64,000 nucleotides of DNA from Candidatus Bathyarchaeota archaeon (GCA_963714275.1 CAVQNT010000003.1:96001-160000); one strand, 5' to 3'; shown: positions 43,564 through 61,743, counted from the first letter of the stretch. Numbers and translations are program-made. Notes: generated by a model not told the origin, from the letters alone.

Positions 43564-46500
43564 TCATGCTTGTTGGACACGGATGGTTCTTATTTCGAAC
43601 GGTCTGAGCGTAAGCCTTATTTTATTTGCTTGAGGCTCAAGGGTTTGTAGCTTTTTCTCCGTCAAGTCAACTTCTTCGGCTTCTCGAACATTGAATCCAA
43701 AGGTTAGTTCCGCCTCTACCCCAGAACCTGTGGCGTCGTAGATTCTGACGATGCAATTTTCTGAGTCTTCTGCTGAGCTTGACGCAGGACACGACCACAT
43801 TGTCAGGCTTAACTTGCAGAAAACTGGTTTCCTCAGACGCACACTCTTTCGATACCAATCGATCCACGATAACGAAGGCTTTAAGCGGATGATTAACCTC
43901 GTAGCCTTTCCTGAAGGTTAAGGCTTCCTTCCAGCTGTTTCTGTGCGGATAAACAGAATACTTTATTTCGTGAACCTTTAGGTCTGGTCTGGGGTCAGGA
44001 TTGTAACTGGTTCTGACAAGCGTCATTCTAACCGTGTTGCCTTTAACGTCGAACCCGTACTTAGAATCATTCAAAAGGCTGAACCCGTATTCCTCGTCTG
44101 AAACGTCGACCCACCTAAGCGCAGGAACCTCCGTGCCATCAGCTGGTCTTTCAATGTACCCGAACGGAACCTCAAACGATGCTTTAGAATATCCCAAGAT
44201 TGGAGTGAAAGAAACCTTCAACATGGGTGCCTCGGTTTTTTCGTCGGAAACTTCTTTCCAGTCTACGATTGTTTTAAAGTCTAATCTTGGAACGCCTTTA
44301 CATAAAGAAATGTACTGAACAATCTCGGACCCTCTGAACCTGTGGGTCACTTTAACCGTTGCCCTTACGGGTCCAGTCTCGATAGGCTCGGTTTTCGCGC
44401 CTCTTATGAGATTCTCCGAACGGCTGATTTCGCCTATGATCCAAGCCGACATATTGTGAGGAAGCTCGTACAAAACCTGCAGGAGATTACTGAAAACAGG
44501 TCTCGTGTATAGATACCTATTTTTTTGGACAACGAACCGTCCAGCAGACTTGTCGTAAAGCGATTTAACTGTGCCAGATTCCTTCTCGATTTCAACCCTG
44601 AAAAACTCGTTCTCAAGTACGTTATCGCTTTCAGTAAGATTTGTCGAACCTTCTACGCTGCCTTCTCCCTCAACGAGATAGAAGGTTTTGTAACCCATAG
44701 AAGGCACCTTAGCCAAAAAAAGAACTTCGTCGCCATTCACCTGCACAAAATTTTTTTCTCCACCCTCGGTTGAAACAGCAATTGGGTTCTGCGGAATCAA
44801 ATTTTTGGGAACTTTAGCTTGAACAACTTCAGCACGGTCCCACGACAAAGGGTTGAAAACAACTATCGGCACTCCCGATTTAGAAAATTTTATTTTCTCT
44901 ATAAAGACTTTTAAAAGATGCTATTAGAGTTTCATCTGCAATCTTTAAGGCTTCTTCAGCCAGCTCAAAAGGATATTCGTATGCTTCTGGGGTTCCACTT
45001 CCATCCAGTATATCGTGGAACTGGTTAAAGAGGGCATTCGACCAAGCCTTGCGAAGGGCGTCTCTGGGATAATTGCCTGAGAAAACAGCGAACTTTTCGG
45101 CGTCCACAAGCAGACTTTCACAAAGCCGATTGTAGCGTTTTATGTCGCCGTGCGTAGTGTAACATCCGTCAAGGGTGAACTGAAGCTCATCCCTGACCAC
45201 AGGAGCCTTTTTTACACCAGGGTCCTTTTCGAACTCTTCATAAAACCTGTGGGTTGAACTGAAGATGAGTCAGGGAAAACCTGTTTTTTCTGGAGCTCGA
45301 AAGCGGCTTCGAGGTCATCAACCGTTGCTCCTCCACCATGGTTGCCTACCCCGTAAACAAACATGCTTGTCTTCACCCCGTAATGCTTTACGAGGTAGAG
45401 AACCAGCTCCATAATGTTCCTCGGTGTCACAGTGTTGTTGTACAGGCTTGCGAAAACCAGAACTTTCGACCCGTCGGGTGATTCCCACCAGAAGACAGGT
45501 CCTTTGCTACATCTCGTTAGATAGTAGTATCTGCACCTCGACTTCCTCAAAAGTTGCGGCATAGTCGAGATGTGACCAAAAGTGTCAGGTTCCCAGCATA
45601 CTTTAGGCTCGAACCCGAACGCTTGCTTAATGTAGCGGTTGGCTTCTAGAAACTGCCTAACCAACGCTTCGTTTCCGCCCATGTTTAAGTCAGCTTCGAC
45701 CCACGTGGAAGCGGTGATGTCCCAGTTCCCCCTTTTCACGTGCCTTTTTATCGAGTCAAAGAGGTCTGGAAACTTTTCCTCAACAACCTTGTACGTGAAG
45801 GCTTGACTTTGCGAGAAGTGGAAATCGGGATACTTGTCTAACAATTTAACCATCGTGCCAAAAGTGTCTTTTATGATGTCCACGGTGTCGGTCCAAGGCC
45901 ACAACCAATTCATGTCAATGTGTGCGTGACCCACAAGAAAAACCCTGAACTCCTTAGCTTTTCTGGAAAGAACGGATAACTTGGCTCGTGCTATTTCAAT
46001 TTCGTCAATTAGCACCGAAGGATGCTTCTCTAAAACCTTCACGTTGAATTCTTTGGACACGTTATCGGTGATTTTCTTGTCCAGAACAGTTGCGAACCTG
46101 AGTTCCTGGATGAACGATTCAAGTTCAAACGCCACTTTTTCAACATTACTGTAAGTTATGCCAAAACTAGGTATTCCCACAGGCTCAAACCTAGGAAAGA
46201 CGTGAACTGCAACGACATATTCCTTTTGGGACTTAGTCTCCTCATCAAGAACTATTCTGGGTCCACGGAGCTCAGTCCAGTAATCAGCGCCCAAAACCTT
46301 CTCAGAATTCACAAAAATCTCTATTTTGTTCATTATGATGCCAGACGGCATCTTTACGGTTGAACCGGAGACATCTATGCCCAAAATCTCTTTGGGAACC
46401 AAAATTCTGGTCCTAAGCCAAGCCCCGCCTTTCCTTGCATCAACGGTCAGGGGGAGCTTAACTTGTTCCCAAGCAGAATCGTTAAAATCAGATTTATAGG

Positions 46501-46621
46501 CGTCTGGAGATTCTCCTTGATAGAACCTCCAAGAAAGGCTTTCGCGGTATCTTGTCAACTCTGTATGTTTTTCTAGAAGCTTTTGTAATAGAGGCGAGAA
46601 GTCATAGTTTTGGTTGTGCAT
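43564..46621 (-). CDS. GH38 alpha-mannosidase, split into four frames
   Basis: GHAHIDMNWLW, PDTFGH, YG.GNHGGG, NQFHDIL.G, VFNPLSW, LNDSKYG, PFEIRT. Confidence 0.9.
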
Positions 46622-46828: not shown

Positions 46829-48854
46829 TTAGCACATTATGTCATAGAGAACGTGCCCTTCGCTTTGAGCGGGCGCAGGAAAGTCAAGCAAATAGGCTAA
46901 CGTTGGCGCCACATCCACAAGCCATATGGGTTCAGTCCGCAAGTAGCCCTTTTTTACGCCAGGACCAGATATTACGAATATCGCTTCATTCGAGCATCCT
47001 CCCAGTTTCGCAGTAGGCAAGAATCCCGAATGATTGCCTCGTCCAGGTCTTGAGGATATCATCATTTTTTTCTCTTCATCGGTGTATCGCATTTTTTCAG
47101 GCAAAGGAACAGGTCCTGGGTCTCCTGTGTATCCTGGTTTATAGAAATACAGCATGTCTGAAGCTCTTTCTCCCCAATGACCCAGCATTTTTGCGTCCTC
47201 CTTCCGTAAAGCAAGAGCGATGGGGCATCTTCCAGTCTCGGGGTCTTTTAGTCCATAAAGTAGGCTGAGGGTTTGGTCAATGACATCGTCATAGTCTTGT
47301 CCCGGATCAACAATTCCCTGGGGGTCTCGACCCTTCAAATTTACCCAAATATATTCCATTGGGAACCCAGGTCGGATGTAAGCCTTCGTTCTAGACCAAT
47401 CTATCTTTGAATACCCAGTTTCCTTGTCAGTCTTTATTGTCAATAATCTAGCTAACTGCAACACTCCGTTCACTGAAATGGATTTTCTTATTGGTACCGC
47501 AGCGTGGTCTGATATTACGATGGTTAGCATGTCTTCGCTCCAGCATTCCTTAACCATTTTTCCAACCTGCTCGTCCATGTGCTCGTACATCTTCCTGATG
47601 ATTCCCCAGTGAGCCTTCTCTATCTTGGGGTCATAGCCAGGAGCAGAAGGATTAATGCCATCAAAGCCAATCTGATGGCCTATTTCGTCCTGTAAATGAA
47701 GCAAAGAAAACAGTCCGTCCCAACTGTACTTTTTTTTCAGGTAACGGGCTACGTTGACAAAATAGTTCAGTTGATGCGACGTGCATTCAAAGTAAATGTC
47801 TAAGAGCTTAGGTTTCTCTACGCGAATCGGGTGCCTGTAACCCATGTACGTTTCAAAACCGCCAGCGTAAATGCCAACATTTTCTACGATTTCTTGGGCC
47901 AAATTCGGAGGATAGGTCCATCCGTCCGTCTTGTAGGGGATGGTTCGGAAAATTTCGATTTTGTCGCCTTTGGGCGATAGCTCGTTCAGTCTAAACTTGA
48001 ACCCTACCTTAAATCTTTGACTGTCGCTGACAACTTTGTCGTATGTCCAATCGCTCCACTCTTTCACTCTAAGATTGGCTATTGAGGTCGCAATGTTTTT
48101 TTCACGGCAAACGTAAACTTTGTCGTATCCTTCATTTTTAGAGTCAATTATCAATAAATGATAAGTTGGGTCCCAAATTGGGTCGCTCTTTTCTTCTTCA
48201 GTTTTCCCGTAATGTAACTGTTCCCATTCGCTTTGCCACACGTCTGATGCAAGTTTGCTGCTCGTAAAATTACTTGGAATCTTGGATTCTAAAGGTTGAG
48301 AAAACGATTTTGGAAGGTTTTCCCATCCCTCTGCTTTTTTCAACGAAATCTGGAATTCAAATATGTCCTGTGTTTCCTTTGAACTGGGAGATTCAGTGAT
48401 AAAATTCACGGGTACTCCTTTGTTCCACTTAGGCGCACAGCCTGAAGGTGATGGACCACCAACCAACATTCCATTTTTGAAAGTAGGTGGCCACGAGCAT
48501 AAGTAATTCATAACTAAACATTTCTTTCCCGCCTTTTCCGCTGCATCCCAAAGGAACTCGGCTTTACAGAGTCTTTGTTGAGTCTAAACCCACAGTTGAC
48601 CGCCCAACATCCAATGGGTCGCCTGGAAGATGAATCGTAAAACTTGTTATGCCATGGGTACCAGGCCAAGCACCCGTAACTATTGTAACCCAATTAGTGG
48701 GAGAGTCGACGGGAGGAGCTGGAAGCGCTCGGGAGTATGTCCCCTTTTTGATTAATCGTGCAATATTGGGCATGTGTCCTTCATGCAGAAATCGGTTAAA
48801 ATGCTCAGGCATTGCGCCATCAAACCCAAGAATCATGAACTTCTTGGCTTTCAT
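46829..48854 (-). CDS. Alkaline phosphatase superfamily (NPP/phosphodiesterase-like) protein, frameshift near 48565
   Basis: ILGFDG, SPTNWVTIVTG..PG.HGI, DEIGH, ISDH, VDVAPT. Confidence 0.88.
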
Positions 48855-49141
48855 AACTCTGTAATAATAGGTTTCCAATATAAAAGTTACAATGAAGTAC
48901 ACGCAATAATAAAATTTAAACCCAAATTCGAGAATCCTTTTCTTAATTTGATGTGTATTAGAGGATTTCAATAAAATGTTCAACTATAAGAAAAATTGTA
49001 TGTTGTTCATTAAAAGAATGGTCGATTCAGTAAGTGTCGCATGAATTTTTCTTCTTTGAAATGAGAAATCGTATATCTTCTGTTGCTGTAATGGTAGGAC
49101 AATGGGTAATATAACTCGGTTATAATTATAACATATTTAAG

Positions 49142-49257: not shown

Positions 49258-51330
49258 ATGGAAAGAAAAGAGGTAATCATGATGGCAAATGAAAAAAGTG
49301 AAACAAAACCAGTAACATTGAGAGCGATAATAGTTGCTGTACTCATGTTCGCTATCTTTCTACCAATCTCCGAAATTTTGCTCCTTTACAACAGGAACCC
49401 ATCAACATACTACGGTTTTCCATTAACATTCTTCTGGCTTACAATGATGTTCTACGCTTTAGGCAAAGTAAGTAACAAGCTTAGACTAAGCGTATCAGAA
49501 TATGCGTTTGTCTTTGTGGTCGTTAACATTCTAGCAGGCGCTAGAGGAATGAGTATGTGGGCTCAAACAGAGAACTTCCTTAGATTCTCAGACGAAGCTG
49601 CTTCTATTCTGATTACAGGACTATTCAATACACCCAGCCTATACAATTCTTTGGTTCCGGAAATACTCTTCCCCGCTGCTCAAAGAGCAGACGTAGTAAA
49701 CATGGTGATGTTGGGAATTAGTCCAGGACAAATCTTTCCTTGGGCAGCCTTAGCTGTACCTGTGGCAATGTACTCGATTTTCACATTCCTCATAATGTCT
49801 ATTTCTGCGTTCATATCCTTCGCTATACTGAGCCCAGTATGGACTGACATTGAAAAACTGCCCTTCCCTATCCATGCGCTTTCAGCCATAGAATTTGCTA
49901 GAGACGGCATAGAAAAAAGAAGAATCTTTAACCTAAAAGAAGGAGACAGAAAAGTCTTCTGGATATTCTTCCTGATTGGTGCTTTAGCATCTCTGACGCC
50001 AGTATTGCTTGAATTAGTTCCCACGTTGCCTCTACTGAACGCCTTTAACTTCGGAGAAACCCGTGTACCAATACTTTCGTCAATATCGTCTGTTCTACCT
50101 GGATGGATAGGATACGGATGGTGGGTTTTCCCACAGTTCTTCATAGGCCTAGTTGTCTCTAACGAAGCACTCATTTCCGCTATAGTAGCATATCTTGTTC
50201 ATTGCATCTACAACGTCATAGCCGTTCAAGCAGGATGGTACCAGTACTACGTACCTGGATCAGAGGTAACTGGCGGATACTGGGACTTACCTTCAGGACA
50301 ATCTCCATTCCCACTACGATACATGATCATGCCAGGCGGTTTCGTCGGTGTAGGCATCATACTCTTCTGGGCAGCCAGGCACAGAATCAAAAAAGTTGTC
50401 AACGCCTTACTTGGAAAAGAAAACGTTGTAGAAGCGGGTCTATCATTACGTTTCGTGAGTTACATCGGAGTCGCCAGCATTGTCCTATTTCTGGGACTGT
50501 TCGCTGTCGTCGGAGTTCCATTTATAATTGGTCTAATGTGGCTAGTGATGTGGATTTGCTTCTATACTGCTGCTGCAAGAGCTGCCGCTGTGTACGGTGG
50601 CGCAGGTGGAGCTTTGAATTATGGCGACTGGAAAGTGATGTATCCGGTAGGTTCAAGTCTGGGTTATTGGCCAGCCGACCCGCCCGGTAACCAAGCATAT
50701 TTTGTTACAAGAGCTGTTACATATGGATTCGCAGACACAATGGCCAGAGGCGGAGGAATGTACGACATGGTTGCGCTGACAGCGTTATGCCATATCGAAA
50801 AGTCCTTCAACGTTAATATGAAGCACGTTTACATCGCGGTTCTAGTGGTAGCTGGACTCGGAACACCTCTAATGTACCTTTCAGGTTATTGGTTCACAGT
50901 ACACACTGGCGGACTTTATTCAGTAAATTCCATGCCATACTACGACATGATGATGGACTACCAAGGCGTAATGGTCGCTTACTTCACTGCAGGCGGAAAC
51001 TTCTTCCTTGAATCAGCATGGTTCGTCACAGGAATCGGGATATCGGTGGGCATTTATGCATTAAAAATGTTTGTGCCCATACTTCCAATAGACCCTACTA
51101 TACTCACAATACTCTTGTGGAATCCTGAGTGGTTCTGGATGACGGCAATTGCTTCGCTGGTAGTAAAATTCGTCGCAATAAGAATCGTCGGACAAAAGAC
51201 CTTCATGGAATACGCAAAAGCAGTCGTTGTAGGATCGATGGCTGGATTCGGAGCGATATTCACACTGTTGGCTCTTTCCCAATTGGGATTAGTAGCAATA
51301 CCAAGATTCCTAAGCCTATACACTCCATAG
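49258..51330 (+). CDS. Polytopic membrane protein, DUF6785/OPT-like permease
   Basis: 690 aa, many TM helices; TLRAIIVA, LSVSE, W..IEKLPFP motif. Confidence 0.7.
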   Translation: MERKEVIMMANEKSETKPVTLRAIIVAVLMFAIFLPISEILLLYNRNPSTYYGFPLTFFWLTMMFYALGKVSNKLRLSVSEYAFVFVVVNILAGARGMSMWAQTENFLRFSDEAASILITGLFNTPSLYNSLVPEILFPAAQRADVVNMVMLGISPGQIFPWAALAVPVAMYSIFTFLIMSISAFISFAILSPVWTDIEKLPFPIHALSAIEFARDGIEKRRIFNLKEGDRKVFWIFFLIGALASLTPVLLELVPTLPLLNAFNFGETRVPILSSISSVLPGWIGYGWWVFPQFFIGLVVSNEALISAIVAYLVHCIYNVIAVQAGWYQYYVPGSEVTGGYWDLPSGQSPFPLRYMIMPGGFVGVGIILFWAARHRIKKVVNALLGKENVVEAGLSLRFVSYIGVASIVLFLGLFAVVGVPFIIGLMWLVMWICFYTAAARAAAVYGGAGGALNYGDWKVMYPVGSSLGYWPADPPGNQAYFVTRAVTYGFADTMARGGGMYDMVALTALCHIEKSFNVNMKHVYIAVLVVAGLGTPLMYLSGYWFTVHTGGLYSVNSMPYYDMMMDYQGVMVAYFTAGGNFFLESAWFVTGIGISVGIYALKMFVPILPIDPTILTILLWNPEWFWMTAIASLVVKFVAIRIVGQKTFMEYAKAVVVGSMAGFGAIFTLLALSQLGLVAIPRFLSLYTP

Positions 51331-51427
51331 AGTATCCCTTTTATCTGTGGAGTGTAACCTTCTATTTTGTTTATTATCTATCATGATTATGAAAAAGTTT
51401 CTACGAAAATCGAGTGTGGAATGAAAT

Positions 51428-54400
51428 TTGCGAGGTAAACTCCTTAACCCTCATGAAAGCAAATTTGCCACAAAAATCTTAATGGTGATGCTGTTATTAT
51501 GCACGATTGGGGTGACGGTGCCTCTAAGCTTCGGTTCAACAAGTGCAGTCTCCAATTTCTCAAACAAATTCTAATTTGGATTTTTTTCTCGATGAAAACG
51601 TTTACAGTAACGTTCTAGACAGGATAACTTTTCTTTCAAACTTAGGCTCAAGAGTGACGGGGTATGAAGGAAACTATAGGGCTGCCCAATACATAATCGA
51701 CGAATTTTCTAAACTTGGGCTTAACGTGCAAGTCCAGAAATTCAATGTAACAGTGCCCATAGACCTAGGTTCAGACATAACAATCCTTACACCAATCACG
51801 GCAACCATAAATGCTTACGCTGTTTGGCCAAACGGCGTTCAACCTTCCCCTGCAAAAGATTTGGAAGGTCCATTGGTGTACGTGAAGGGTGATTCGTTAG
51901 GAAATTTCGACGGAAAAAATATAACGGATTCCATTGTTCTCATGGAGTTTAACTCCAGCTCCAATTGGCTTTACGGTGTAGATTTGGGTGCCAAAGCCGT
52001 AATATTCATTGAACCTTCCGATTCGTCAAGCAGCGAAAGTCTACAAAAATTCGTTGAAGCCCCCGTCTACTTCCCGAAGTTGTTTGTGAAACATGATGAT
52101 GGACAAAGGCTTAAAAATTTGGTTCAAAGTTCCCAATCCGAAGTTCGAGTAAAAATAAACCTCAGGATGGAATGGAGAACCGTTGAAACACAAAACATCA
52201 TAGCCATGCTTAAGGGTACGGGAAATCCTGGAGATGTCATAGTTCTTACGTCACATTATGACTCGTGGTCGGTTGTTCCCGCCATTTCCTACGGCGCTTC
52301 TGACGCCACGGGCGTTTCATGGCTTATAGAATTGGCTAGGTATTTTTCGGTTAATAAGCCTGTCAGATCCGTTTGGTTTGTAGCCTTCTCTGCTCATTGG
52401 CAGGCTATGGCTGGGGAAAGAGAGTTCGTCGATGAAATGTTCTTTAGCAGTCAGGTTCAAAGTGGAGCGGTCAAACCTTGGGTCTTCATAGGTTTAGGAC
52501 CTTTCTCCGGAGACTCTTTCAATATCCAGCTATTGGACACAAGCTTTTACGCAGGAGCCTGTTCATCTGAGCTGATTACCTCCGACCGATTTACATGGAT
52601 ACAAAGACGCATAACCCAATCTTACCTTCTAAACAACGAATTAAGACTGACAATTGAGGAGCTCACTGGGAGAAATCTTGACCCTACGCTTTTAGTTGAA
52701 GAAAGGCTGTCTACAACCTCTATGTGGTGGGGAACAATCCAACAGCCAATCATGCTTGAAAGCGAAATTCCCCTTACAGCTGGCTGTATATCCTTTAACA
52801 TTCTCAGTTCTCCTGTTTACACATACTCCAAGTACATAGGGTCGCCCGTTAACGACTTGGAACTCGTTAACCTAGAAAATATAAAACCTCAGTTTCTTGT
52901 TTCAGGCTTCATTGTTTCATCCATACTTAACGATAATGAATGGTCCCTTAGTTGGGCCAGCGTTAAACCTGTCAGAAGCGTGTACGTGGGAAGCAGCATA
53001 ATTGCTTCACAAAACGCGGGGTTCATCACGTTGAATGGTAAAGTCCTGTTTTTTAACAATAGTTTAGGTTGGTATGAACCTATTTCCCACGCACTAGTTC
53101 AAGTGCAAATGACGACCATGAATAATCCCTTAGCAAAGATAATTACGATGGCTGATGAAAATGGAAGCTTCCAAATTAGGGGCATAACACCCTACACTCT
53201 CACTTATAACAAGGGCGGATGGGAAACCAAAGCTTGGATTATCGATAAAGAAACCGGGAATATACTATATGCTCCAGACCTCGGAGTTCAAGGCGGCAGA
53301 GTTTTTACAAGCACAATCTTTCCTATGAGTCATCCTGCGCAAGTGTCTGCTGTGGTTGCAGAACTCCGAGCTATAACAGTTTTTAACCTGCTGGACCCAA
53401 GATACGACAGACCACTGATGGTTTTGGACCAAAGGTTTTCCTCGCTTGTCTCAAGCGACATATTTGTATCAGTCAGCGGGTTCATACGCCCCATCGAATT
53501 TTCGTCTAAAAGCGATTTTCTCACTTATGGCGCTTATTATAATCCTTGGGAAACTGTGGGAATAGTTTTTGTCCCGCCGTCCTCAAAAAGTGCTATTTTA
53601 TTGAAAATGGGAGGCACAGGAGCATCTTCGTTAAGCTGGCCCATGTTTCTTACTAATTCGACTGATGAAGAACCTGAAGGGGCAGGAGTTACAATGTCTA
53701 ACGACTCAATCACGATTCCCTTCTCAATTTACGCTTTTGCCTCTGACATGTTCAGAGCAACAAAATCCAGATACGAAAAGTTAACGGCATACAATGTGAG
53801 AAGCCTCAGCATAGAAAAAGCGCTTGATGAATCCCAAAAGAACTTAGCATTGGCTGAAAGCTTGTTTAACAGTAAAAACTACAGCGAAGCTTATAGTTAC
53901 GCTACTTTGTCCTATTCTTGGTCAACCCGAGCTTACAATGAAGTTATGGCTATAATTAACGAAGCAGGCACAAGCATAACGACACTTTTTATCCTTGCCA
54001 TAATAGTTTCCTTCGTAGTGGAGCGAATATTGGTTCAAGCCACGAAAGGTCTTGTAAGGTTACTTTTCATAGTAGGATTCACGGTACTCTCCATTATCAC
54101 GATGAGCCTCATACATCCAGCTTACACGGTCATGAGCAACGCGATCATAGCGAATATTGGTTCAGTTCTGATGATAATGTTCGTTATAAGTCTGGGAATA
54201 CTGGCCATTGAAGCGGAAAAAATGTCAAAAGCCCTTTCTGTACGGTATCTTGGTACGCACAGTATTGAGAAGGCTCGATTGGGCGTCGTAGCCCTAGCTT
54301 CCTCGATATCTGTTAACTTCATAAGAAAACATCGTCTCCGGGCTGTGCTAACGTTCCTAACAGTTTTCATAGTCAGTACAGCCATCACGTCAATTACTTC

Positions 54401-55989
54401 CATGGCACCATTCATAGGTGTCAAGATTTCGCCAAAGTCACTGGGAACATTGGATTTACTTTATCCGACGCAGTTGTTCTTAAAGAATGGTCAAGGTTTG
54501 CCTCAAAATGACATTTTCTCAGCACAAGTCGTTGAAGTCCTTAATCAGGTTTTGAAGGACAAATTCGTAATATTGCCTAGGGTCGTTTACTATCCTCAAA
54601 CAATATTCAGATACGGCGTTTATCAGGGAATATCGTCTCAAACTCAGACAAGTTACTTAAGGGCTATTCTGGGAGTGTCACCTGCAGAATCTGTCTTCCA
54701 GCAAAACTTGACATCTGGAAGATTCTTTTTAGAAGACGATTTTCAAACATGCATACTGTCCTCGGCGCAGGCTGAGGCGTTAAATGTAAAGGTAGACGAC
54801 AAGATTAGCACCGGCGAGCTACGAACTAGTTGTCGTAGGAATCTTTAATGAAAGTACCTTCAGACAATTAAAAGAACCGAACGGTATTCAGTTTGGAGTT
54901 CCAGACCCCTCCTATAATTCCTACATTGCTAAAGACATGGCTCAGCCTTTGAATCCTGGAGTTACTATTCCTCTACTTTCATGGGAATTTGTCTTGGTGG
55001 TTCCACAAAGATTTGCTCTTAGCCTCGGAGGGTTTGTCCAATCAATAGTCGCTGTACCCGTGTCGTCCGAGGTTTCAAGCAGTGAAATTCGAATAATCGC
55101 GAGTAATTTAGCTTTAACTCTGGATTTGAACATCTCGTTCGTTATTAACGGCTTAATTTCATCAGCTTCAAGATTACCTTCGTACGTTACTTTCGGGTTC
55201 GAGTCCCTAATGGTTCTTGTTGTCATCGCAGCTCTAAACATTGCTGTAACAATACTTTCGAGCATAAGAGAAAGAAACAGAGAGATTCAAGTTTTCGCAG
55301 TGACAGGATTGACGCCTCTGGGCTCCATGTCCATGTTTATTTTGGAATCGGAGATTTACGCCATCATCGGAGGGTTCCTAGGATACTTCGCCGGTTTTGG
55401 ACTTAATACTGCCTTCCGCAATTTTGGATTGTTGCCCTCGGAGATACCCTTCAATCACATTTCTTCAACCACAATGCTCACAATTGTCATAATTTTGGTG
55501 GTCAGCTTTGTCACGTCTTTGTGGCCATCTTTTTCAGCAGGCAAATCCGTTACACCTTCACTTCTTAGAAAATGGGAGTTCACCACCGAGCCAGGACAAG
55601 ATGATTGGGAAATACCAATACCTTCAAGAGCCTCATCCAAAGAGGAAGCGATAAGCATTCTTAGATTCCTGAAAGAATTTTTTGACGGTGCCGGCAACGT
55701 GGGACACATGTTCATGATTACTGAAACAAAGAACGTGATGGCAGAAGACGCCACGATAAGGTTTGTGATTAGGCAAGCTCCCTACGAACTGTTGATTCTT
55801 TCAGACGTGGAAATTCGATTCGTAGCGGACACTGAGGGATACTCAACACAAGTGTATCTGAAAAGAACATCGGGAGATAGAAAAGCGTGGATCGTCTCAA
55901 GCTACTATTTCGTGGACTCCCTGAGGAAGCAATTATTGCTTTGGAGAAGCCTTGCGGTTGCTGATCGTAGGAAGTTTTTGAATGACTAA
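51428..55989 (+). CDS. ~1500-aa fusion: signal peptide, PA/M28-like ectodomain, TM bundle, MacB-like loop and FtsX permease; frameshifts near 51550 and 54820
   Basis: SRVTGYEG, GPLVYV..GAKAVIFI (PA), SHYDS..GASDATG..ELAR; RLRAVLT; SIRERNREI.VF..GL.P..F..E (FtsX). Confidence 0.75.
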
Positions 55990-57878
55990 ATCTGTGCAGG
56001 AAAATGCATCGTCTCTTAAGCCTGGACTAACTTGGAGAAGCTTTATTGCAATGCTGACAGCAATCCTAATCTTTTTGCCAGCATCCATATATATGAACTT
56101 GACGTCAGGAGCCGGCACTTTAGGCGTAGCAGCATCCTTCGTTATCGCCATCATATTTAGCGAAATAACAAGGTACTTTGGGAACCCTCTTACAAAACAG
56201 GAACTTTTCATTATGTTTTCCGTGGTTTCAGCGGTATCCAGCCTTGTTACGCCCTATTATGGTCTTATTTGGAGAGTCTACTTTTCAACTCATCCCGTGT
56301 TCTCCCACGTAATGCTTTACGGCGAACCCCTGATTAACCTTATTCCTTCATGGTTTGTTCCTAAAGATGCCAGTGTCCTGCAGTTGCGAACCTTTTTTGT
56401 CGCGGAGTGGTTCCAACCAATCGCCATAGTTCTTACAATGGTTATCTTGTCTCTCATCCAATCGGTTTCTATAGCACTGTTCTGCTCTCATCTATTCATA
56501 GACGTTGAAAAGTTAGAGTTTCCATTCGCCAAGATTCAAAGCAGCCTCGTTCAGGTACTGTCTGAGAAGAAAGAGAACCAAATGAGAATCTTTATTTTTT
56601 CAGTAATGATTGGGCTTGTGTTCGGTTTGATTCTTTACGCTCCTCAACTTATCGGCACGCCCATAATTCCTCTTCCCTTCGTGGACCTTACGAGTTTTAC
56701 TCAAGACATCGTTCCGGGTGCCATAATTGGCTTGTCTACCGACATATTGACGTACGCAATGGGCATAGTAATTCCGCTTAATGTCGCTGCGTGCCTCGTC
56801 GTATCCTCCATCTTCGTGTACGTGATAGCGAATAACCTGTTTTTGGTTACTTTCCCGAACGTATTTCCACAATGGGTTCAAGAATACTACCCCGGAATGG
56901 GCATAGCCAGCCTCCAGTATAGGTCAACTCTACGAATATGGCTCCCGTTCCAGTTCGGAATGAGCATGGCTATGGCTATTTTCTACGTTCTCCTTTTGAG
57001 AAAGGAAGTTTTCAAATCCTTTAAGCTCCTAGGAAAAATCAAAAGCGGAACTGAGGATCATCCGTCAATTCCCATAGTTCTGATAATATTCATACTTTCT
57101 TCGTTGGCTTCGGCTGGTCTTTTCTTGTATTTTGTACCTGAATATCCAGCGTGGATAGCTGATTCTACTGTCAACGGGCTACAGCTTTCTGATGGCTTTA
57201 ATTTCATCAAGAGCTTTAGGTGTAGGAGGTATGAGCCCGTCTTTCCCGTACCCGTGGCGCATGATAACACTGTTCACGGATTATAAAGGGCTAGTAGGAT
57301 GGGACTTCCAACCTGCCATAGAAACAGGGGGATCAGCAGGCATAGTTCAGTCGATGAAAATAGCCTATCTGACTGAGACGAAACCTATGGATTACATAAA
57401 AATGTTCATCATAGGTAACATCGTGGCGCTTCTGTTAAGCGTAATATTCTACGATTTCTTCTGGAGAATGACGCCTATCCCGTCCACCGCCTATCCTTAC
57501 ACGTTAATGTATTGGCCTCAAAGCATGTTAGAGCTTCTAATGTACGCAACTAGGCAGATACAGATCCCTCCAGAAAGAATCGGCATAGGCATGGGAATCT
57601 CGATGCTATTATTAGCAGTCGAGTTTGGCTTAAACAGAATCAGCGTTCCATTCTCAGCCATCGGGTTACTTCTTGGAGCCTTCCAGATACCGCCAGCAGC
57701 CCTAGCCATATTCGTAGGCTCACTCATCAGTGACGTAATAATCGTCAGAATAATACCTGACTGGAAAGACCTTAAATTTATGGCGATGGCAGGTCTGATG
57801 GCTGGTGTAAGCATTAGTGCAGGCTTAGGAGTGTCCGTGTCCATTATTCTTAAATCGTCATGGATATGGTCATGGTAA
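55982..57878 (+). CDS. OPT-like polytopic permease, frameshift near 57160
   Basis: GLTWRS, LTKQE, F..VEKLEFP, PIPSTAYP..W; overlaps upstream gene. Confidence 0.72.
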
Positions 57879-57939: not shown

Positions 57940-58966
57940 ATGATGGTCTCTGAAGAATATGATAAAGAAATGAAAAGAGTACTTTTCGTTGTCATAGACC
58001 AGCTTGCTGGTCATTGGGCTAAAGGGGTCAGCGTCGCCAAAGACATGCCGCCAGTTAACGTTTGGGGCTACCACGAGAAAGGCTTGACTCCAAACTTTTC
58101 ATACATCATCAAAAACGGAATCTTTGCTTTCGCGTGGAACCGAGGAACCTGTGACACTCCGCATGGAATGAAGTATCTCGCGACGGGAAGCTGACAATGT
58201 GGAGCCTTTCTGGAAATCCCTGAAGAACCAGTCATATTATGCTAGGAAAGACTCAGACCCTATAGGTTTGTTCGAATATGCCAAACACTACAATCCTGAG
58301 GGCATTACGTCTGCTTGTTTCACAACCGATAATTGGGCGGCTCCGGGTTACTTTTTCACTGCTGCCGACACGCACGCTTTAACGTCTTATTTTCCTGATG
58401 AGACGATGTGGAGAGAGTTTGCGTTAACGTACTTGAGAAGAAAGAAGAATTGGAACCTTGCCCACGTTTATTTCCCGACCAACGACATTGTTTCTAACTG
58501 TCCGTCTTACGCGTTTTGGAATCCTCATGTTCGCTCATCAAAACATTCGTACATACAATATCTGGATAGCCTTCTAGGAGAAATCGTCGAGTTCCTAAAA
58601 TTCAACGAACTGTGGGACAAAACCTACTTAATATTGGCGTCTGACCACGGTTTTCACGCTGCTTGCTCAGCTGCAAGAAACGTCGGCAAAATGATAGGCA
58701 TTAATTCGCCTAACTGGTGTTGTGACCATCTTCCGCCGTATGACTGCGAAATCTGGGACTACGAAAATGACCATTCGAAAGGCGAATATTCTGGGTGTGC
58801 CAGAAGAGTTTTGTCCATCGTTTCAGGGGGAGCTCTCGAAAAATCCCTTCAAGGCAAAGTCATAAATGAATCAGAAATAATTGACGTCGCACCGACAATA
58901 GCGGACATCCTCAAAATTCCCTATAAATGCGAGGGAAAATCCCTATTTGAAAAATTAAAGCGTTGA
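57940..58966 (+). CDS. Alkaline phosphatase/sulfatase superfamily protein, frameshift near 58193
   Basis: FVVIDQ, TPNF..I..NG, T..G..YLATG, ASDHG, IDVAPTIA. Confidence 0.75.
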
Positions 58967-59040: not shown

Positions 59041-61743
59041 ATGTTCGTGAGGTTGGTCAGAAAGATGTCGGATGTGCAGTCTATCGTCGTGTCGCACACT
59101 CACTGGGACCGCGAGTGGTACATGCCTTTTCAAGAGTACAGAATATGGCTTGTGGAATTCATGGACGACCTGTTAAGGGTGTTCGACCAGAAACCGGGCT
59201 ACAAATGTTTCACACTAGACGGTCAAACGTCTGTAATCAACGACTATCTGGAGGTGCGTCCAGAAAAAACTGAAAGATTAAAGAAACTGGTTGCTGAAGG
59301 AAAAATTTTTGTCGGTCCATGGTACACGCAGCCTGATGAGTGGCTTGTCAGTTCAGAGTCGCTTATTCGGAACTTGATGCTTGGTCACAGAGTTGGGCAA
59401 CAATTTGGCAACGTCTTGAAGGTTGGGTACGTCCCTGACAATTTCGGTCACCCTTCGCAGCTTCCCCAAATTTTCCGAGGGTTCGAAATTGACAACTTCG
59501 TTTTCATGAGAGGAATGGGAAACGAAGGGGATAAACTGAAAACCGAGTTTATCTGGCAGGCTCCGAACGGTTCAAAAGTCATCGCCATGCACCTGATCGA
59601 TTCTTACGTTAACGCGGCGTTGTTAGGCCTTCCGCCATCTATGCAGGACAGATTCGTCAGACTTTGGGAGGGACCAAGCGGGTCTCTGACGTATCCAAGA
59701 TCGTTCAGTGATATACTGGACAAATTCGATTGTGAGACTCTTGTTGACAAAGTCAAACGATTGGCAGAGGTGTTATCGCTTAAATCGGTTTCGGGTAAGC
59801 TGTTGTTCATGAATGGCTATGATCATGCACACGCGCAACCGGGAATAGTTGACGCCATAGAATTTGTCAATAAACAAGACATGGGCATCAAGCTAATCCA
59901 GGGAGGACTGGAGGACTACATAAACCCATTGCGTTCAATGATGGGGAAGATGCAGACTTATACAGGGGAGTTTTGGGGAGCCAAGTACCATTACCTTTTG
60001 CCGGGCGTGCTTTCTACTCGCATGTACCTTAAACAGCAGAATCGGCAGGCTGAGATTCTTTTAGAGAGCTACGCTGAACCTTTGTCGTGCTATGCGGTTC
60101 TCTTCGGGTATGAGTATCCAAGGAGTCTTCTTTCGTTGGCGTGGAAACTTCTGCTTCTGAATCAGGCTCACGACAGCATTCACGGCAGCAGCGTTGACGC
60201 GGTTCACGTGGAGATGGAGGCGCGGTACCAACAGGCAATCCAGATTGCTAACGCAGTTACGTATGACGCATTAAGGTACATAGCCAGCAAGGTTGAGAAT
60301 TTTTCGGACACTGATACCTTAAGGGTGGTCGTTTATAACCCGTCAAACTGGGCACGCAGCGACATAGTAAAGCTTTGGGTCGACCTTTCAACAGGCAACT
60401 ATGTAGCCATGGATAAAGAAGGAGACGCTGCGCCCATTCAATTCCTTAAAGAAGAAAACACGAGATTCCCAAAAGAGACCTTTTCACACATATCATTCTT
60501 CGCCAAGGATGTACCTCCTAATGGCTTCAGGGAATTTGCGGTTGTAGAAGCTGAAAAAACTGAACGGAAAAAAGCACAATCAGCTTTGAGAGCAGGTTCC
60601 CACTTGTTAGAGAATGAGTTCTTCCGAGTAGTTGCTGATGTTGATGAAGGCGGTTCTCTAACGGTAACTGATAAACGCAACAATGTCGCGTATAAAGGCT
60701 TTAACTTGTTCGTTGACGAGGGAGACCACGGCGACGTGTGGGATTATTCGCCTCCTAAAGGCGGAGACAAAGTTGTCACAAGCAAAAACAGACGTGCACA
60801 AATAGAGACTGTTGAGAAGGGACCTGTTTCCGCTACTTTAAAGGTTAGCCTAGTTTTGGATGTGCCTAAAAAGACTGAAGGAGATAGGCGCAGCAGCGAG
60901 ACGGCGGAAGTTCCCATAACGTCCTATGTTTCGTTACATTCAGGCGTTCCCAGAATAGACATAAAAACAGTTGTGGACAACACAGCCGAGGACCACAGGC
61001 TCAGGGTAAAGTTTCCAACTGGCATACGAACGTCTTCAGTGAACTCTGACGGACTGTTTGTCGTCAACGAAAGACCCGTGAAAAACGACGTAAAAGGCGA
61101 AAATTGGAAGCAACCCCCTCCGACGACGTTTCCGCAAATGTTCTGGCTTGAAGTTCACGACGACGAAAAAGGCATCACCGTAGCCAACAATGGACTGCCC
61201 GAATATGAATGCAGAGAAGAAGACGGAGTCAGCGTCTACATTACTTTGATGAGATGCGTGGGATCCCTAAGTAAAGAAGACCTATTAACCCGAAAAGGAC
61301 ACGCAGGACCGCCGCTTCAAGTGCCCGGAGCGCAGTGCCATCGACTGCACGCCTTTGAATACTCAATAATTCCACACATGGGAGATTGGGTTAAATCAAG
61401 GTCGTATCAGCAGGCAAAGAACTTCGTTAATCCGCTTGCTAGCTGGAGCGTTAAAGGCGAAGGTGGGACCATTCCGGTTGACGACGGGTTCGTTAAGATT
61501 GGGCCTGACAATCTGGTTGTCACCGCCATTAAACGGGCTGAAGATGACTGTTCCACCATACTCAGATTCTATGAAGTTGCGGGTAAACCATGTACTGCCC
61601 AAATCGAATTTAAAAAAGGTTTCCGCGAAGCGTGGTTAACTAACCTTAACGAGGAAGACAAGCGACGTGTGGAAATAAAAAACGGAAAAATCAAAATCCC
61701 CGTAGCAGCATTCGAAATAATTTCTTTGAAGCTTAAGACATAA
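59041..61743 (+). CDS. GH38 alpha-mannosidase (MngB-like subfamily)
   Basis: SHTHWDREW, LDGQ, GPWY..DE, PDNFGH, NG.DH, QAHDSI.G..D.VH. Confidence 0.93.
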   Translation: MFVRLVRKMSDVQSIVVSHTHWDREWYMPFQEYRIWLVEFMDDLLRVFDQKPGYKCFTLDGQTSVINDYLEVRPEKTERLKKLVAEGKIFVGPWYTQPDEWLVSSESLIRNLMLGHRVGQQFGNVLKVGYVPDNFGHPSQLPQIFRGFEIDNFVFMRGMGNEGDKLKTEFIWQAPNGSKVIAMHLIDSYVNAALLGLPPSMQDRFVRLWEGPSGSLTYPRSFSDILDKFDCETLVDKVKRLAEVLSLKSVSGKLLFMNGYDHAHAQPGIVDAIEFVNKQDMGIKLIQGGLEDYINPLRSMMGKMQTYTGEFWGAKYHYLLPGVLSTRMYLKQQNRQAEILLESYAEPLSCYAVLFGYEYPRSLLSLAWKLLLLNQAHDSIHGSSVDAVHVEMEARYQQAIQIANAVTYDALRYIASKVENFSDTDTLRVVVYNPSNWARSDIVKLWVDLSTGNYVAMDKEGDAAPIQFLKEENTRFPKETFSHISFFAKDVPPNGFREFAVVEAEKTERKKAQSALRAGSHLLENEFFRVVADVDEGGSLTVTDKRNNVAYKGFNLFVDEGDHGDVWDYSPPKGGDKVVTSKNRRAQIETVEKGPVSATLKVSLVLDVPKKTEGDRRSSETAEVPITSYVSLHSGVPRIDIKTVVDNTAEDHRLRVKFPTGIRTSSVNSDGLFVVNERPVKNDVKGENWKQPPPTTFPQMFWLEVHDDEKGITVANNGLPEYECREEDGVSVYITLMRCVGSLSKEDLLTRKGHAGPPLQVPGAQCHRLHAFEYSIIPHMGDWVKSRSYQQAKNFVNPLASWSVKGEGGTIPVDDGFVKIGPDNLVVTAIKRAEDDCSTILRFYEVAGKPCTAQIEFKKGFREAWLTNLNEEDKRRVEIKNGKIKIPVAAFEIISLKLKT

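Follow-up and report, generated by a model that had tools for sequence, protein, structure and literature searches.

A candidate nutrient-uptake module of Thermoproteota that links OPT-like carriers to a PA-M28/FtsX fusion protein

Type VII ABC systems such as MacB, LolCDE and FtsEX share the FtsX membrane domain, and the 'duplicated orphan permease' (ADOP) of Acidobacteria is an FtsX-type permease without an adjacent ATPase. Known members of the OPT family are importers, and M28-like pseudo-peptidases such as nicalin take part in membrane complexes. Two publications describe MacB-fold systems as acting on membrane-embedded or periplasmic substrates (PMC5985334, PMC12646458). Here, we analyzed a locus of Candidatus Bathyarchaeota archaeon in which features of these systems meet. 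The window, i.e. the whole stretch of DNA that was analyzed, comprises 64,000 nucleotides (C3:96001-160000), and positions are counted from its first nucleotide. A literature search found no published work on the FtsX-OPT module.

Layout and integrity of the locus

The three module genes lie on the same strand (+) at positions 49258-57878, and the stop of gene 2 (55989) and the ATG of gene 3 (55982) give an overlap of 8 nt, as expected from the co-directional run with overlapping last genes in the preliminary description. The features of the locus and its surroundings are as follows.

43667-46621, - strand: GH38 alpha-mannosidase, in pieces (Glyco_hydro_38C E 2.3e-44, Glyco_hydro_38N E 2e-54)
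49258-51330, + strand: perm1, ORF for a polytopic permease of 690 aa in the DUF6784/DUF6785 family, which forms a distant OPT-superfamily branch
51482-55989, + strand: gene 2, PA-M28/FtsX fusion, ~1,500 aa if read through (start 51482 inferred)
51549, + strand: extra base in gene 2 that puts the signal-anchor piece out of frame with the main reading frame, without counterpart in relative G002
51594-52964, + strand: PA-M28 extracellular domain of gene 2 (approximate, mapped from the orthologue in G001)
52977-54329, + strand: extracellular region of gene 2 rich in beta structure, with a stalk of three helices and the first membrane-helix set (approximate, AF2 secondary structure)
54336-55551, + strand: MacB/LolC-type unit of gene 2, made up of TM1, a putative periplasmic-core-like domain and TM2-4 (FtsX), with the frameshift at 54816 inside it
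54816, + strand: extra base in gene 2, without counterpart in G002, X1 and X4, probably an assembly error
55552-55986, + strand: C-terminal cytoplasmic domain of gene 2, ~145 aa (AF2), carrying the family signature motifs
55982-57878, + strand: perm2 (gene 3), OPT-family permease, ~631 aa if read through
57161, + strand: extra base in gene 3, without counterpart in G002, X1 and X4, probably an assembly error
59041-61743, + strand: GH38 alpha-mannosidase, intact, 900 aa, four GH38 domains

Genes 2 and 3 are interrupted in this genome. Gene 2 is spread over three frames in all, with main frames at 51543-54848 and 54937-55989, and gene 3 over two (55982-57286 and 57192-57878). DNA comparison with G002 (91% identical) located 1-nt insertions at 51549, 54816 and 57161. 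Spanning contigs of the runs X1 and X4 (98.6-99.3% identical, from other studies) lack the extra base at 54816 and that at 57161, and a loose contig end of X3 also lacks the latter; the contigs compared from X1, X3 and X4 bear on these two positions and not on 51549. The giant M28-FtsX fusion of the preliminary description is real, but as one open frame gene 2 is seen only in orthologues of 1,480-1,530 aa (intact: 1,526 and 1,522 aa). With intact genes in the orthologues and two of the three insertions missing from near-identical contigs, the frameshifts in genes 2 and 3 are likely assembly errors. The opposite reading, that this genome carries a decaying set of pseudogenes, could appeal to the three interruptions themselves, to the fact that none of the insertions lies inside a homopolymer run, and to splits in several neighbor genes and in the contig's second module. 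We consider it very improbable given the X1 and X4 contigs, and the frames are fully open and conserved apart from single bases; the same kind of split occurs in many unrelated genes of the region, which points to an error-prone consensus.

The permeases and the fusion protein

A six-frame profile search assigned perm1 to PF20581 (DUF6785) with 69.5 bits (E 1.1e-19, cut-off 25 bits), and hmmscan of the window protein gave zero Pfam matches. Among its relatives, DUF6785 was recognized in 14 of 18 and DUF6784 in 10 of 18, and the nearest Atlas clusters are DUF6784/DUF6785. The C-terminal piece of perm2 matched OPT (PF03169; 31.9 bits, E 7.7e-8, cut-off 25.8), as did the intact G001 orthologue (36.2 bits, E 3.7e-9, residues 16-612 on model positions 2-615 of 623); OPT was recognized in 14 of 60 members of the perm2 family (best E 1.2e-17). 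Direct BLASTP between perm1 and perm2 was weak (E 0.001, 109 aa), and profile-profile alignment of the two families with hhalign gave a probability of 99.8% (E 3.4e-28, 596 columns). All three motif pairs on which paralogy had been proposed beforehand (TLRAIIVA/TWRSFIAM, LSVSE/LTKQE, IEKLPFP/VEKLEFP) align in hhalign, so that the view of the two permeases as OPT/DUF6785-like paralogues is upheld by this alignment and by the Pfam matches. Judged from these profiles, perm1 and perm2 are homologous over their full length and belong to the OPT superfamily. Sequence search found no relative of the permeases with a solved structure.

The extracellular part of the fusion begins with a PA-M28 domain. 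Peptidase_M28 (PF04389) matched residues 218-296 with 41.3 bits (E 1.8e-10), covering model positions 1-77 of 193 only, and was found by Pfam in all 10 fusion relatives. The AF2 model of the PA-M28 domain reached a pLDDT of 88.4, and Foldseek aligned the ectodomain model with PA-M28 proteins at E 8e-23 (2ek8) to 1e-17, including the transferrin receptor (TfR) and GCPII (~1e-18). A phmmer search matched nicalin at E 0.0076 and 2ek8 at E 4e-9, the latter with 'sahwq' aligned to 'gaeen'. At the two positions of the catalytic Glu-Glu, Glu occurs at neither in 71 of 71 members; His is present in 59 and Trp in 54. The first zinc-ligand His is kept in 62 of the 71, and the bridging position holds Glu in 45 and Asp in 24. 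The absence of Glu-Glu from every member favors a receptor role of the ectodomain over a peptidase role. The His-Trp pair together with the kept His and Asp/Glu ligands could also mean altered catalysis instead of a dead site. The beta-rich region that follows gave a weak match to CarboxypepD_reg (E 0.05).

The membrane half carries an FtsX domain (PF02687, 43.8 bits, E 3e-11, 55210-55539), found in 10 of 10 fusion relatives. The MacB periplasmic core (MacB_PCD, PF12704) was matched at E<=0.01 in 5 of the 10, and the G001 protein scored 22.8 bits, below the 27-bit cut-off. Foldseek related this region to the periplasmic region of MacB (5c59, E 1.9e-5) and the FtsX unit to LolC/E, MacB, HrtB, YtrF and YbbP (E 4.5e-11 to 1.6e-5). 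In the AF2 model, a short helix between TM2 and TM3 lies where LolC/E and MacB-type proteins have their coupling helix. The two membrane bundles of the fusion gave no sign of duplication in hhalign (probability 0.5%). Membership in ADOP (TIGR03434) was considered and rejected, with 25.5 bits (E 3.4e-6) versus a cut-off of 622.3 bits and one FtsX domain by Pfam.

The C-terminal cytoplasmic domain had zero Pfam matches. Its predicted order of secondary structure (AF2) is compatible with a helix-grip fold, and Foldseek returned weak SRPBCC-like matches, among them 1z94, PYL and PR-10 (E 0.015-0.05, probability 0.91-1.0), comprising at least 10 chains with target-normalized TM-scores of 0.29-0.51 when the whole 752-aa model was the query. 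A profile of the domain collected 1,510 cluster representatives (50% identity), 1,246 of them at E<=1e-10. Most of the proteins listed are 1,400-1,570 aa long and carry the domain at or near their C-terminal end, and the conserved domain appears essentially only in the M28-FtsX fusion architecture.

Gene linkage across genomes and the search for an ATPase

Of 61 genomes searched with perm1, 16 contained a match, and the loci retrieved show the three genes again, unbroken and arranged in at least four different orders. Searching 185,579 species genomes for the fusion yielded 142 confirmed relatives in 78 loci, in keeping with the mention of related gene sets in other genomes in the preliminary description. 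Within 6 kb of 80 fusion genes, both permeases were present in 54 cases, perm2 only in 20, perm1 only in 3 and neither in 3; all six fusion genes without a nearby perm2 lie at contig ends. When at least 6 kb was available on both flanks (n=37), both permeases accompanied 30 fusion genes, perm2 only the remaining 7, and none stood without either. In 67 of the 74 cases, perm2 lies no more than 150 nt from the fusion; the median gap is 4 nt. The module occurs in Bathyarchaeia, Thermofilales, Brockarchaeota-type MAGs, Thermoprotei and cultivated strains of Tardisphaera, and some MAGs carry it at multiple loci.

Of 301 genomes sampled from the phylum, 53 contain DUF6785. In other lineages DUF6785 permeases also occur by themselves, as in one family for which 11 of 11 loci sampled had the permease alone. 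The fusion's signature domain occurs only 0-2 times in genomes that have 20-39 first-look DUF6785 candidates. The strict co-occurrence named as a check in the preliminary description holds in one direction, since the fusion always lies beside an OPT gene (37 of 37 with full flanks), but not in the other, as DUF6785 permeases often occur alone. Because DUF6785 carriers exist without the fusion in other lineages, their function as carriers does not in itself require it.

This genome has 56 PF00005 places, all of them outside the window; the nearest ones lie ~53 kb upstream and ~44 kb downstream of the module. Of the solute-binding families, SBP_bac_5 has six places in the genome and none in the window, SBP_bac_8 has none in the genome, and SBP_bac_1 has one, on contig C2. 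The earlier statement that locus and window lack an ABC ATPase and a solute-binding protein was correct, in the latter case for these three families. Across the 78 loci there is no consistent cognate ATPase: an ABC-ATPase-like ORF lies within ~10 kb in 7, never at a conserved position, and 71 have none. The ORFs that were inspected are parts of self-contained systems: a fused ABC_membrane+ABC_tran exporter (L073), a divergent single gene (L081), and a gene paired with an FtsX permease of its own (218 aa; L092), a layout also found at L093 by HMM scan. In the genome under study, 6 of 13 FtsX-domain places have no ATPase inside 20 kb, and ABC ATPases 57% identical to FtsX-linked ones occur away from any FtsX gene, e.g. 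at C4:6600-7028. None of the three outcomes that the preliminary description listed as refuting its reading was observed.

The gene neighborhood is heterogeneous, with 123 Pfam families among the 133 ORFs nearest to modules and the commonest, URO-D, counted only 10 times. GH3, GH42-like, CBM_4_9, GFO/IDH/MocA, URO-D, MTTB and TrmB recur near modules, and most genes in the context encode cytoplasmic enzymes of catabolism or regulators of sugar use. The substrate class, and even the direction of transport, are not fixed by context. At the present locus, the flanking GH38 alpha-mannosidases look cytoplasmic (no signal peptide was obvious when the translation of the 900-aa enzyme was inspected by eye), which suggests a mannose-containing oligosaccharide or glycopeptide as cargo.

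Proposed function and comparison with known systems

Given the observed domain make-up, the carrier homology, the conserved gene linkage and the lack of a linked ATPase, we tentatively read the module as a conserved Thermoproteota membrane machine for nutrient capture and uptake, with a probability of about 0.42. Its core would be the translationally coupled pair of perm2, an OPT carrier, and the ~1,500-aa fusion, with perm1, the paralogous DUF6784/DUF6785 carrier, recruited in ~4/5 of the loci. The ectodomain would capture or present an extracellular substrate at the membrane surface, and the two OPT-like carriers would import it by proton-motive force. The FtsX unit would serve as a scaffold or couple conformational changes instead of forming the membrane half of an ABC pump, and a dedicated ATPase would play no part. 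The physical complex, the transport direction, the energy source and the substrate are what we infer here. In a more specific form, which we regard as fairly unlikely, a MacB-type mechanotransmission scaffold would have lost its ABC ATPase and become coupled to proton-driven OPT carriers; either carrier motion or ligand binding by the helix-grip-like cytoplasmic domain would be relayed via the FtsX stalk to the transferrin-receptor-like ectodomain, amounting to ATP-independent, receptor-gated uptake.

Type VII ABC mechanotransmission is a fairly unlikely alternative, in which an FtsE/LolD/MacB-type ATPase encoded elsewhere, perhaps shared among modules, would dock on the FtsX unit, ATP hydrolysis would drive the ectodomain, and the OPT-like proteins would be a conduit or separate carriers. 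Foldseek groups the membrane half with proteins that are all ATPase-dependent, the short TM2-TM3 helix sits at the coupling-helix position, and a shared distant ATPase is possible because ATPases similar to the FtsX-linked ones but remote from FtsX genes exist in this genome; shared ATPases are known from other classes of ABC importer. These points have to be set against the 71 of 78 loci without a linked ATPase and the lack of a conserved position in the others, the FtsX-domain places of this genome that have no ATPase nearby, and a conserved C-terminal cytoplasmic domain that is all but confined to this architecture. The genes might instead encode co-regulated but independent parts, i.e. autonomous carriers and a fusion that acts, physically uncoupled, as a surface (pseudo)enzyme or adhesin. 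We judge this unlikely: solitary DUF6785 carriers and the rarity of the signature domain relative to DUF6785 candidates would fit it, but no fusion gene with complete flanks lacks perm2 (0 of 37), and the gap of ~4 nt or overlap between the two persists across deep lineages despite shuffled gene order, a linkage stronger than simple co-regulation usually gives.

We hold an envelope or lipid machine to be distinctly unlikely. Here a molecule that is hydrophobic or linked to lipid would be pulled from the membrane by the FtsX unit and bound by the putative helix-grip domain, and the OPT-like proteins would be flippases or exporters (of lipid-linked glycans or surface-layer parts), comparable to LolCDE and YbbAP-TesA. 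The SRPBCC, Bet v1 and START-like matches of the C-terminal domain, weak though consistent, fit the handling of lipids or hydrophobic ligands; the substrates cited above for MacB-fold systems and the service of M28-like pseudo-peptidases such as nicalin in membrane complexes point the same way. However, OPT-family members are known as importers, the neighbors are mostly catabolic enzymes and sugar regulators and not genes of envelope biosynthesis, and multiple copies in one genome fit substrate diversification.

If true, an ATPase-less, OPT-coupled machine would be a major nutrient route in Bathyarchaeia and other Thermoproteota, and would give the first well-supported example of a protein with MacB/FtsX fold whose obligate partners are secondary carriers and not an ATPase. 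In sediments, Bathyarchaeia and related lineages rank among the most abundant archaea; their substrate uptake has largely been guessed from annotation. Each part of the module is annotated only as DUF, 'ABC permease' or 'peptidase', and metabolic reconstructions therefore miss or misread it. Two strains in culture carry the module, Tardisphaera miroshnichenkoae MP-3918 and T. saccharovorans AK-3817 (L092 and L093; the record CP117708.1 probably corresponds to the genome described in PMC12542729), so that expression and biochemistry are directly testable.

Among described systems, SusC/SusD of Bacteroidota, of which the module had been called a functional analogue, resembles it in that a surface binder is encoded next to a transporter, that some genomes have several copies and that glycoside hydrolases are sometimes nearby. 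The analogy holds as loose logic only: homology is lacking (the three proteins and their relatives had no match to a SusC/SusD Pfam family), the neighborhoods are not consistent glycan loci, and the module involves no outer membrane or TonB, its partners being secondary carriers of the cytoplasmic membrane. With the OPT family (PF03169, TC 2.A.67), perm2 matches end to end and perm1 through PF20581/PF20580, but the module permeases are very divergent and paired beside an FtsX fusion, and their substrate need not be a peptide. The fusion ectodomain has the fold and domain order of the PA-M28 aminopeptidases (2ek8, PaAP, BSAP), GCPII, transferrin receptor and nicalin. It differs from the enzymes in that all 71 members carry other residues, mostly His-Trp, in place of Glu-Glu and that its tether is a polytopic FtsX unit and not a single anchor, and it is like the non-catalytic receptor members (transferrin receptor, nicalin) in missing the catalytic pair. 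ADOP is likewise an FtsX-type permease without an adjacent ATPase, but belongs to another lineage with other partners, and the fusion has a single detectable FtsX domain. Type VII ABC proteins (MacB, LolCDE, FtsEX, HrtBA, YtrEF, YbbAP, BceAB) share with the fusion the FtsX domain, a putative MacB-core-like insert between TM1 and TM2, the long stalk and the four-helix bundle (Foldseek E 4.5e-11 to 1e-3), whereas the fusion, which is archaeal, has no fused or linked ABC ATPase, adds a PA-M28 N-terminus, extra helices and a unique C-terminal domain, and is obligately linked to OPT-like carriers.

Gene layout and frame breaks

Three genes, all in one direction, make up the module at window positions 49258-57878:

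49258-51330, + strand: perm1 (gene 1), DUF6784/DUF6785 permease, intact ORF of 690 aa
51543-54848 and 54937-55989, + strand: fusion (gene 2), PA-M28/FtsX protein of about 1,500 aa, ORFs in two long frames
55982-57286 and 57192-57878, + strand: perm2 (gene 3), OPT-family permease, ORFs in two frames

The signal-anchor piece of the fusion occupies a third frame, with its start near 51482, and the stop of gene 2 overlaps the start of gene 3 by 8 nt. Compared with a congeneric genome (G002, 91% DNA identity across the module region), the window has one additional base at each of 51549, 54816 and 57161, in no case within a homopolymer run. In two further relatives (G001 and G035) each orthologue reads as one uninterrupted frame, with fusions of 1,526 and 1,522 aa and perm2 proteins of 631 and 632 aa, respectively. 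Logan contigs of four public sequencing runs were compared with the module stretch. Contigs spanning 54816 and 57161 were obtained only from runs X1 and X4 (two studies; 98.6-99.3% identity to the window) and all lacked the extra base; in run X3, a contig starting at 57162 has a loose end that continues into the upstream sequence with no extra base. Contig evidence was confined to sites 54816 and 57161. Many nearby genes, among them GH38, phosphodiesterase-like genes and those of a second module, are similarly split, and the assembly of the source genome (G000) appears to carry frequent single-base indels. Splits into adjacent frames were seen in the window at 43667-46621, 46829-48983 and 57940-58966, in GH38 mannosidase and type I phosphodiesterase/sulfatase-like genes. 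We read the frameshifts in genes 2 and 3 as consensus errors of this assembly; that the genes are local pseudogenes of a module decaying in the source genome is highly improbable in view of the X1 and X4 contigs.

Families and domain architecture of the three proteins

Pfam searches with pieces of the window yielded an OPT match on a perm2 piece (E 7.7e-8), and hmmscan returned no family for the window perm1 even at E 10. The latter was assigned to its family because a six-frame family search matched it to DUF6785 (69.5 bits) and because its relatives carry the same domains: one (72% identical) of the only two close relatives in an index of 5.8 billion proteins matches DUF6785, and among 18 perm1-family members gathered from related genomes DUF6785 was found in 14 and DUF6784 in 10. 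An intact perm2 orthologue matches OPT over its full length (16-612 against 2-615 of 623, E 3.7e-9), and OPT is recognised in 14 of 60 perm2-family members. Pairwise BLASTP between the permeases was weak for the N-terminal piece (E 0.001) and gave no match for the C-terminal piece. Profile-profile comparison of the two families, however, aligned 596 columns with a probability of 99.8% (E 3.4e-28), including all three motif pairs from which the preliminary description had proposed paralogy, a proposal that is thereby borne out. Atlas neighbours are concordant and include an OPT cluster with DUF6785 also present in 19% of its members. Together, the full-length profile alignment and the Atlas neighbours indicate that, at the sequence level, perm1 and perm2 are paralogues that belong, as divergent members, to the OPT superfamily, for which an OPT-like fold is predicted; searching solved structures by sequence with the permease profiles returned nothing useful.

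The fusion pieces matched Peptidase_M28 (E 1.8e-10) and FtsX (E 3e-11) in Pfam, and NCBIfam gave only sub-threshold ADOP, LolC and FtsX matches. In all ten full-length relatives both M28 and FtsX were detected (MacB_PCD in five), in agreement with the earlier view of the middle gene as an M28-FtsX fusion. An AF2 model of the N-terminal half (71-row alignment, pLDDT 88.4, pTM 0.88) matched PA-domain M28 aminopeptidases, namely 2ek8 (E 8e-23), PaAP and BSAP, as well as the transferrin receptor and GCPII (about 1e-18), with alignments covering 480-590 columns. The PA-M28 domain is followed by beta-rich domains and then by a three-helix stalk. In a phmmer alignment, 'sahw' of the fusion family stands opposite 'gaee' of the 2ek8 peptidase. 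Neither Glu of the M28 Glu-Glu pair occurs in any of the 71 members, which mostly have His (59) and Trp (54) instead; the first His ligand is retained in 62/71, and 69/71 have Glu or Asp as the bridging acidic residue. A role of the ectodomain as a canonical M28 peptidase was rejected, the catalytic Glu pair being absent in 71/71. The ectodomain more probably serves as a binding module or as a site put to another use, by analogy with the transferrin receptor or nicalin.

The model of the C-terminal half (72 rows, pLDDT 88.1) matched LolC/E, MacB, the pneumococcal MacB-like transporter, HrtB, YtrF, YbbP and BceB (E 4.5e-11 to 1.3e-3). A duplication of the membrane part is hinted at only by its topology and by long Foldseek alignments with YbbP and BceB; the hhalign test of the two bundles for internal duplication was negative (probability 0.5%). 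The last 145 residues form a beta-alpha-beta-rich domain in the model. Weak but consistent SRPBCC/Bet v1/START-type matches of the C-terminal-half model (E 0.015-0.05, probability 0.91-1.0) probably belong to this domain, judging from its size and secondary structure. A profile of the 145-aa domain, searched against 1.84 billion cluster representatives, matched 1,510, with E<=1e-10 for 1,246. Of the proteins listed, most are 1,400-1,570 aa long and carry the domain at or near the C-terminal end, and the shorter ones look like fragments; the domain is therefore a signature of the fusion architecture.

Linkage of the genes and their surroundings

A perm1 search of 61 relatives gave matches in 16 genomes, and the 20 regions retrieved contain further intact trios, arranged as perm1-fusion-perm2, perm1-perm2-fusion, perm2-fusion-perm1 and fusion-perm2-perm1. 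With the fusion alignment as query, one genome for each of 185,579 species was searched, yielding 142 confirmed relatives, and 78 loci were kept. All are from archaeal records (labelled Bathyarchaeia, Thermofilaceae/Thermofilales, Brockarchaeota, Thermoprotei, Desulfurococcaceae, Nitrososphaerota/Thaumarchaeota or Thermoproteota), among them the complete genome CP117708.1. The loci were scanned with custom HMMs, counting a permease if it lay within 6 kb:

Permeases next to fusion genes
All fusion genes (n=80): both 54; perm2 only 20; perm1 only 3; none 3
Fusions with flanks of at least 6 kb on each side (n=37): both 30; perm2 only 7; perm1 only 0; none 0

The six cases with perm1 only or with neither permease are all at contig ends, and one of the seven perm2-only loci (L097) contains a split perm1 that scored under the threshold. 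Co-occurrence of the genes elsewhere, as previously suggested, was thus confirmed, with perm2 present at 37/37 fully flanked fusions and perm1 as well at 30/37. perm2 lies within 150 nt of the fusion in 67/74 cases (median gap 4 nt) and perm1 in 23/57 (median gap 784 nt), and therefore the tight unit is fusion plus perm2, with perm1 as a frequent third member.

The converse linkage fails: DUF6785 genes are not always accompanied by the fusion. In an even sample of 301 genomes from the phylum, 53 contained DUF6785, against none of 14 control genomes, with up to 39 first-look candidates per genome, of which 4 per genome were scored. Neither fusion nor perm2 was present within about 9 kb of any of the 11 DUF6785 loci sampled in one family, and one or the other was present within that distance in 3/3 loci of two other genomes. 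The signature domain occurred 2, 1, 0, 1 and 1 times in five genomes (four with 20-39 first-look DUF6785 candidates and one with two). Stand-alone DUF6785 permeases appear to be multiplied in one family (L124-L134 in G112, G098, G142 and G105; 20-39 first-look candidates per genome, 4 scored each). Their neighbours include MTTB-superfamily methyltransferase, URO-D-like, GH4, M20 peptidase, thiolase and Nre genes, and among the neighbours of full modules URO-D-like genes are the commonest. The recurring MTTB/URO-D link hints at methylated compounds as possible cargo for some carriers.

The flanks of the module in the window contain two GH38 alpha-mannosidases, one of which is split, and pieces of alkaline-phosphatase-superfamily genes. 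The intact GH38 (900 aa) showed no obvious signal peptide when its translation was inspected by eye; it looks cytoplasmic and would need imported mannosides. Upstream of the module, 41320-42423 encodes a probable surface protein that combines FG-GAP repeats and a dockerin-like segment. Recurrent neighbour clusters were URO-D-like (15 loci), a 237-aa ORF (14), GFO/IDH/MocA (12), a CBM_4_9 protein (9), GH42-like (7) and GH3 (6), counts that are not independent because many loci are related. The 237-aa ORF is conserved but has no Pfam match, is convergent to the fusion 3' end with a slight overlap (L091:14313-15023, minus strand, and 13 further loci), and comes mainly from Thermofilaceae and Brockarchaeota-type MAGs. 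The 133 de-duplicated ORFs nearest to modules contained 123 Pfam families, most commonly URO-D (10), DUF790 and MoCF_biosynth (4 each), MTTB (3), and TrmB, GHL10 and CBM_4_9 (2 each). We read this varied catabolic context as compatible with an uptake family that has diversified, but not as proof of import.

A second, paralogous module is located 3-12 kb past the right end of the window (G000:C3:163064-171804), with an M28-FtsX fusion and a perm2-like gene on the minus strand, both split into several frames, and a divergent 638-aa DUF6785 gene on the plus strand (E 3.2e-17). The module is also present in the cultivated polysaccharide-fermenting Tardisphaera miroshnichenkoae MP-3918 (L092, CP117708.1) and T. 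saccharovorans AK-3817 (L093).

ATPases, proposed mechanism and known systems

The source genome has 56 PF00005 places, and the two nearest to the module (C3:91083-92542, about 53 kb upstream, and C3:197835-199376, about 44 kb downstream) are outside the window, which thus contains no ABC ATPase, as first noted; for the families tested (SBP_bac_5, SBP_bac_8, SBP_bac_1) it also contains no solute-binding protein. Although the genome has several glycoside hydrolases, SBP_bac_8 gave no match genome-wide and SBP_bac_1 one. Sugar ABC importers of the classical CUT1 type seem to be few, which would allow for a further route of sugar uptake. No ATPase lies within 20 kb of six of the 13 FtsX-domain places, namely the two modules and four other orphan FtsX genes. 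A crude Walker A/signature motif scan, which gave one ATPase candidate (L042) in the first 20 regions, was replaced by an HMM built from 34 ABC domains of this genome. ABC-ATPase-like ORFs were then found in the flanks of 7/78 loci:

L073: fused ABC_membrane+ABC_tran exporter
L092: two ATPases plus a 218-aa FtsX permease of their own
L093: layout as in L092, by custom HMM scan
L081: divergent single gene
L055, L057: ATPases at least 9 kb off, at locus edges
L095: fragment

With an ATPase in so few flanks and none near in the source genome, a cognate ATPase is not consistently encoded with the module, and at the level of the locus the original ATPase-less description holds. In L092 and L093 the small FtsX permease and its two ABC ATPases are a few kb from the module. 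Another orphan FtsX class, a second FtsX/MacB_PCD family of about 1,000-1,080 aa without M28, occurs near several modules (L058:17694-20825, L077:4779-7814, L093:199-3447, L105:9191-12256, L031:11994-15116) and at G000:C1:21307 and C5:46897, with no ATPase within 20 kb in G000.

We favour, with a probability of about 0.4, a mechanism in which the MacB-fold scaffold would hold the non-catalytic PA-M28 ectodomain, the ectodomain would capture or present substrate, and OPT-like, proton-driven carriers would receive it, with no dedicated ATPase. The fusion might instead be driven by a shared ATPase encoded elsewhere, for example C4:6600-7028, which is 57% identical to an FtsX-linked ATPase and has no FtsX gene near it; we consider this rather unlikely. 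It is unlikely that the three proteins are co-regulated but physically independent parts, and a role in envelope or lipid handling, as suggested by the helix-grip-like domain, is more doubtful still. The module is widespread and experimentally approachable.

Literature searches found nothing on DUF6785, DUF6784 or an M28-FtsX fusion, nor on the OPT family in Bathyarchaeia or ATPase-less orphan FtsX permeases; passages of PMC12542729, whose supplementary transporter tables may list these genes, do not mention the module. Among known systems, perm2 is a member of the OPT family and perm1 of DUF6785/DUF6784. The fusion has the FtsX/MacB fold of type VII ABC systems, but their defining feature, a cognate ATPase, is not consistently encoded with it; it is not a member of ADOP, and it has the fold of the M28 metallopeptidases without their catalytic residues. 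In the module, an orphan MacB-fold protein has OPT-superfamily carriers as its obligate partners.
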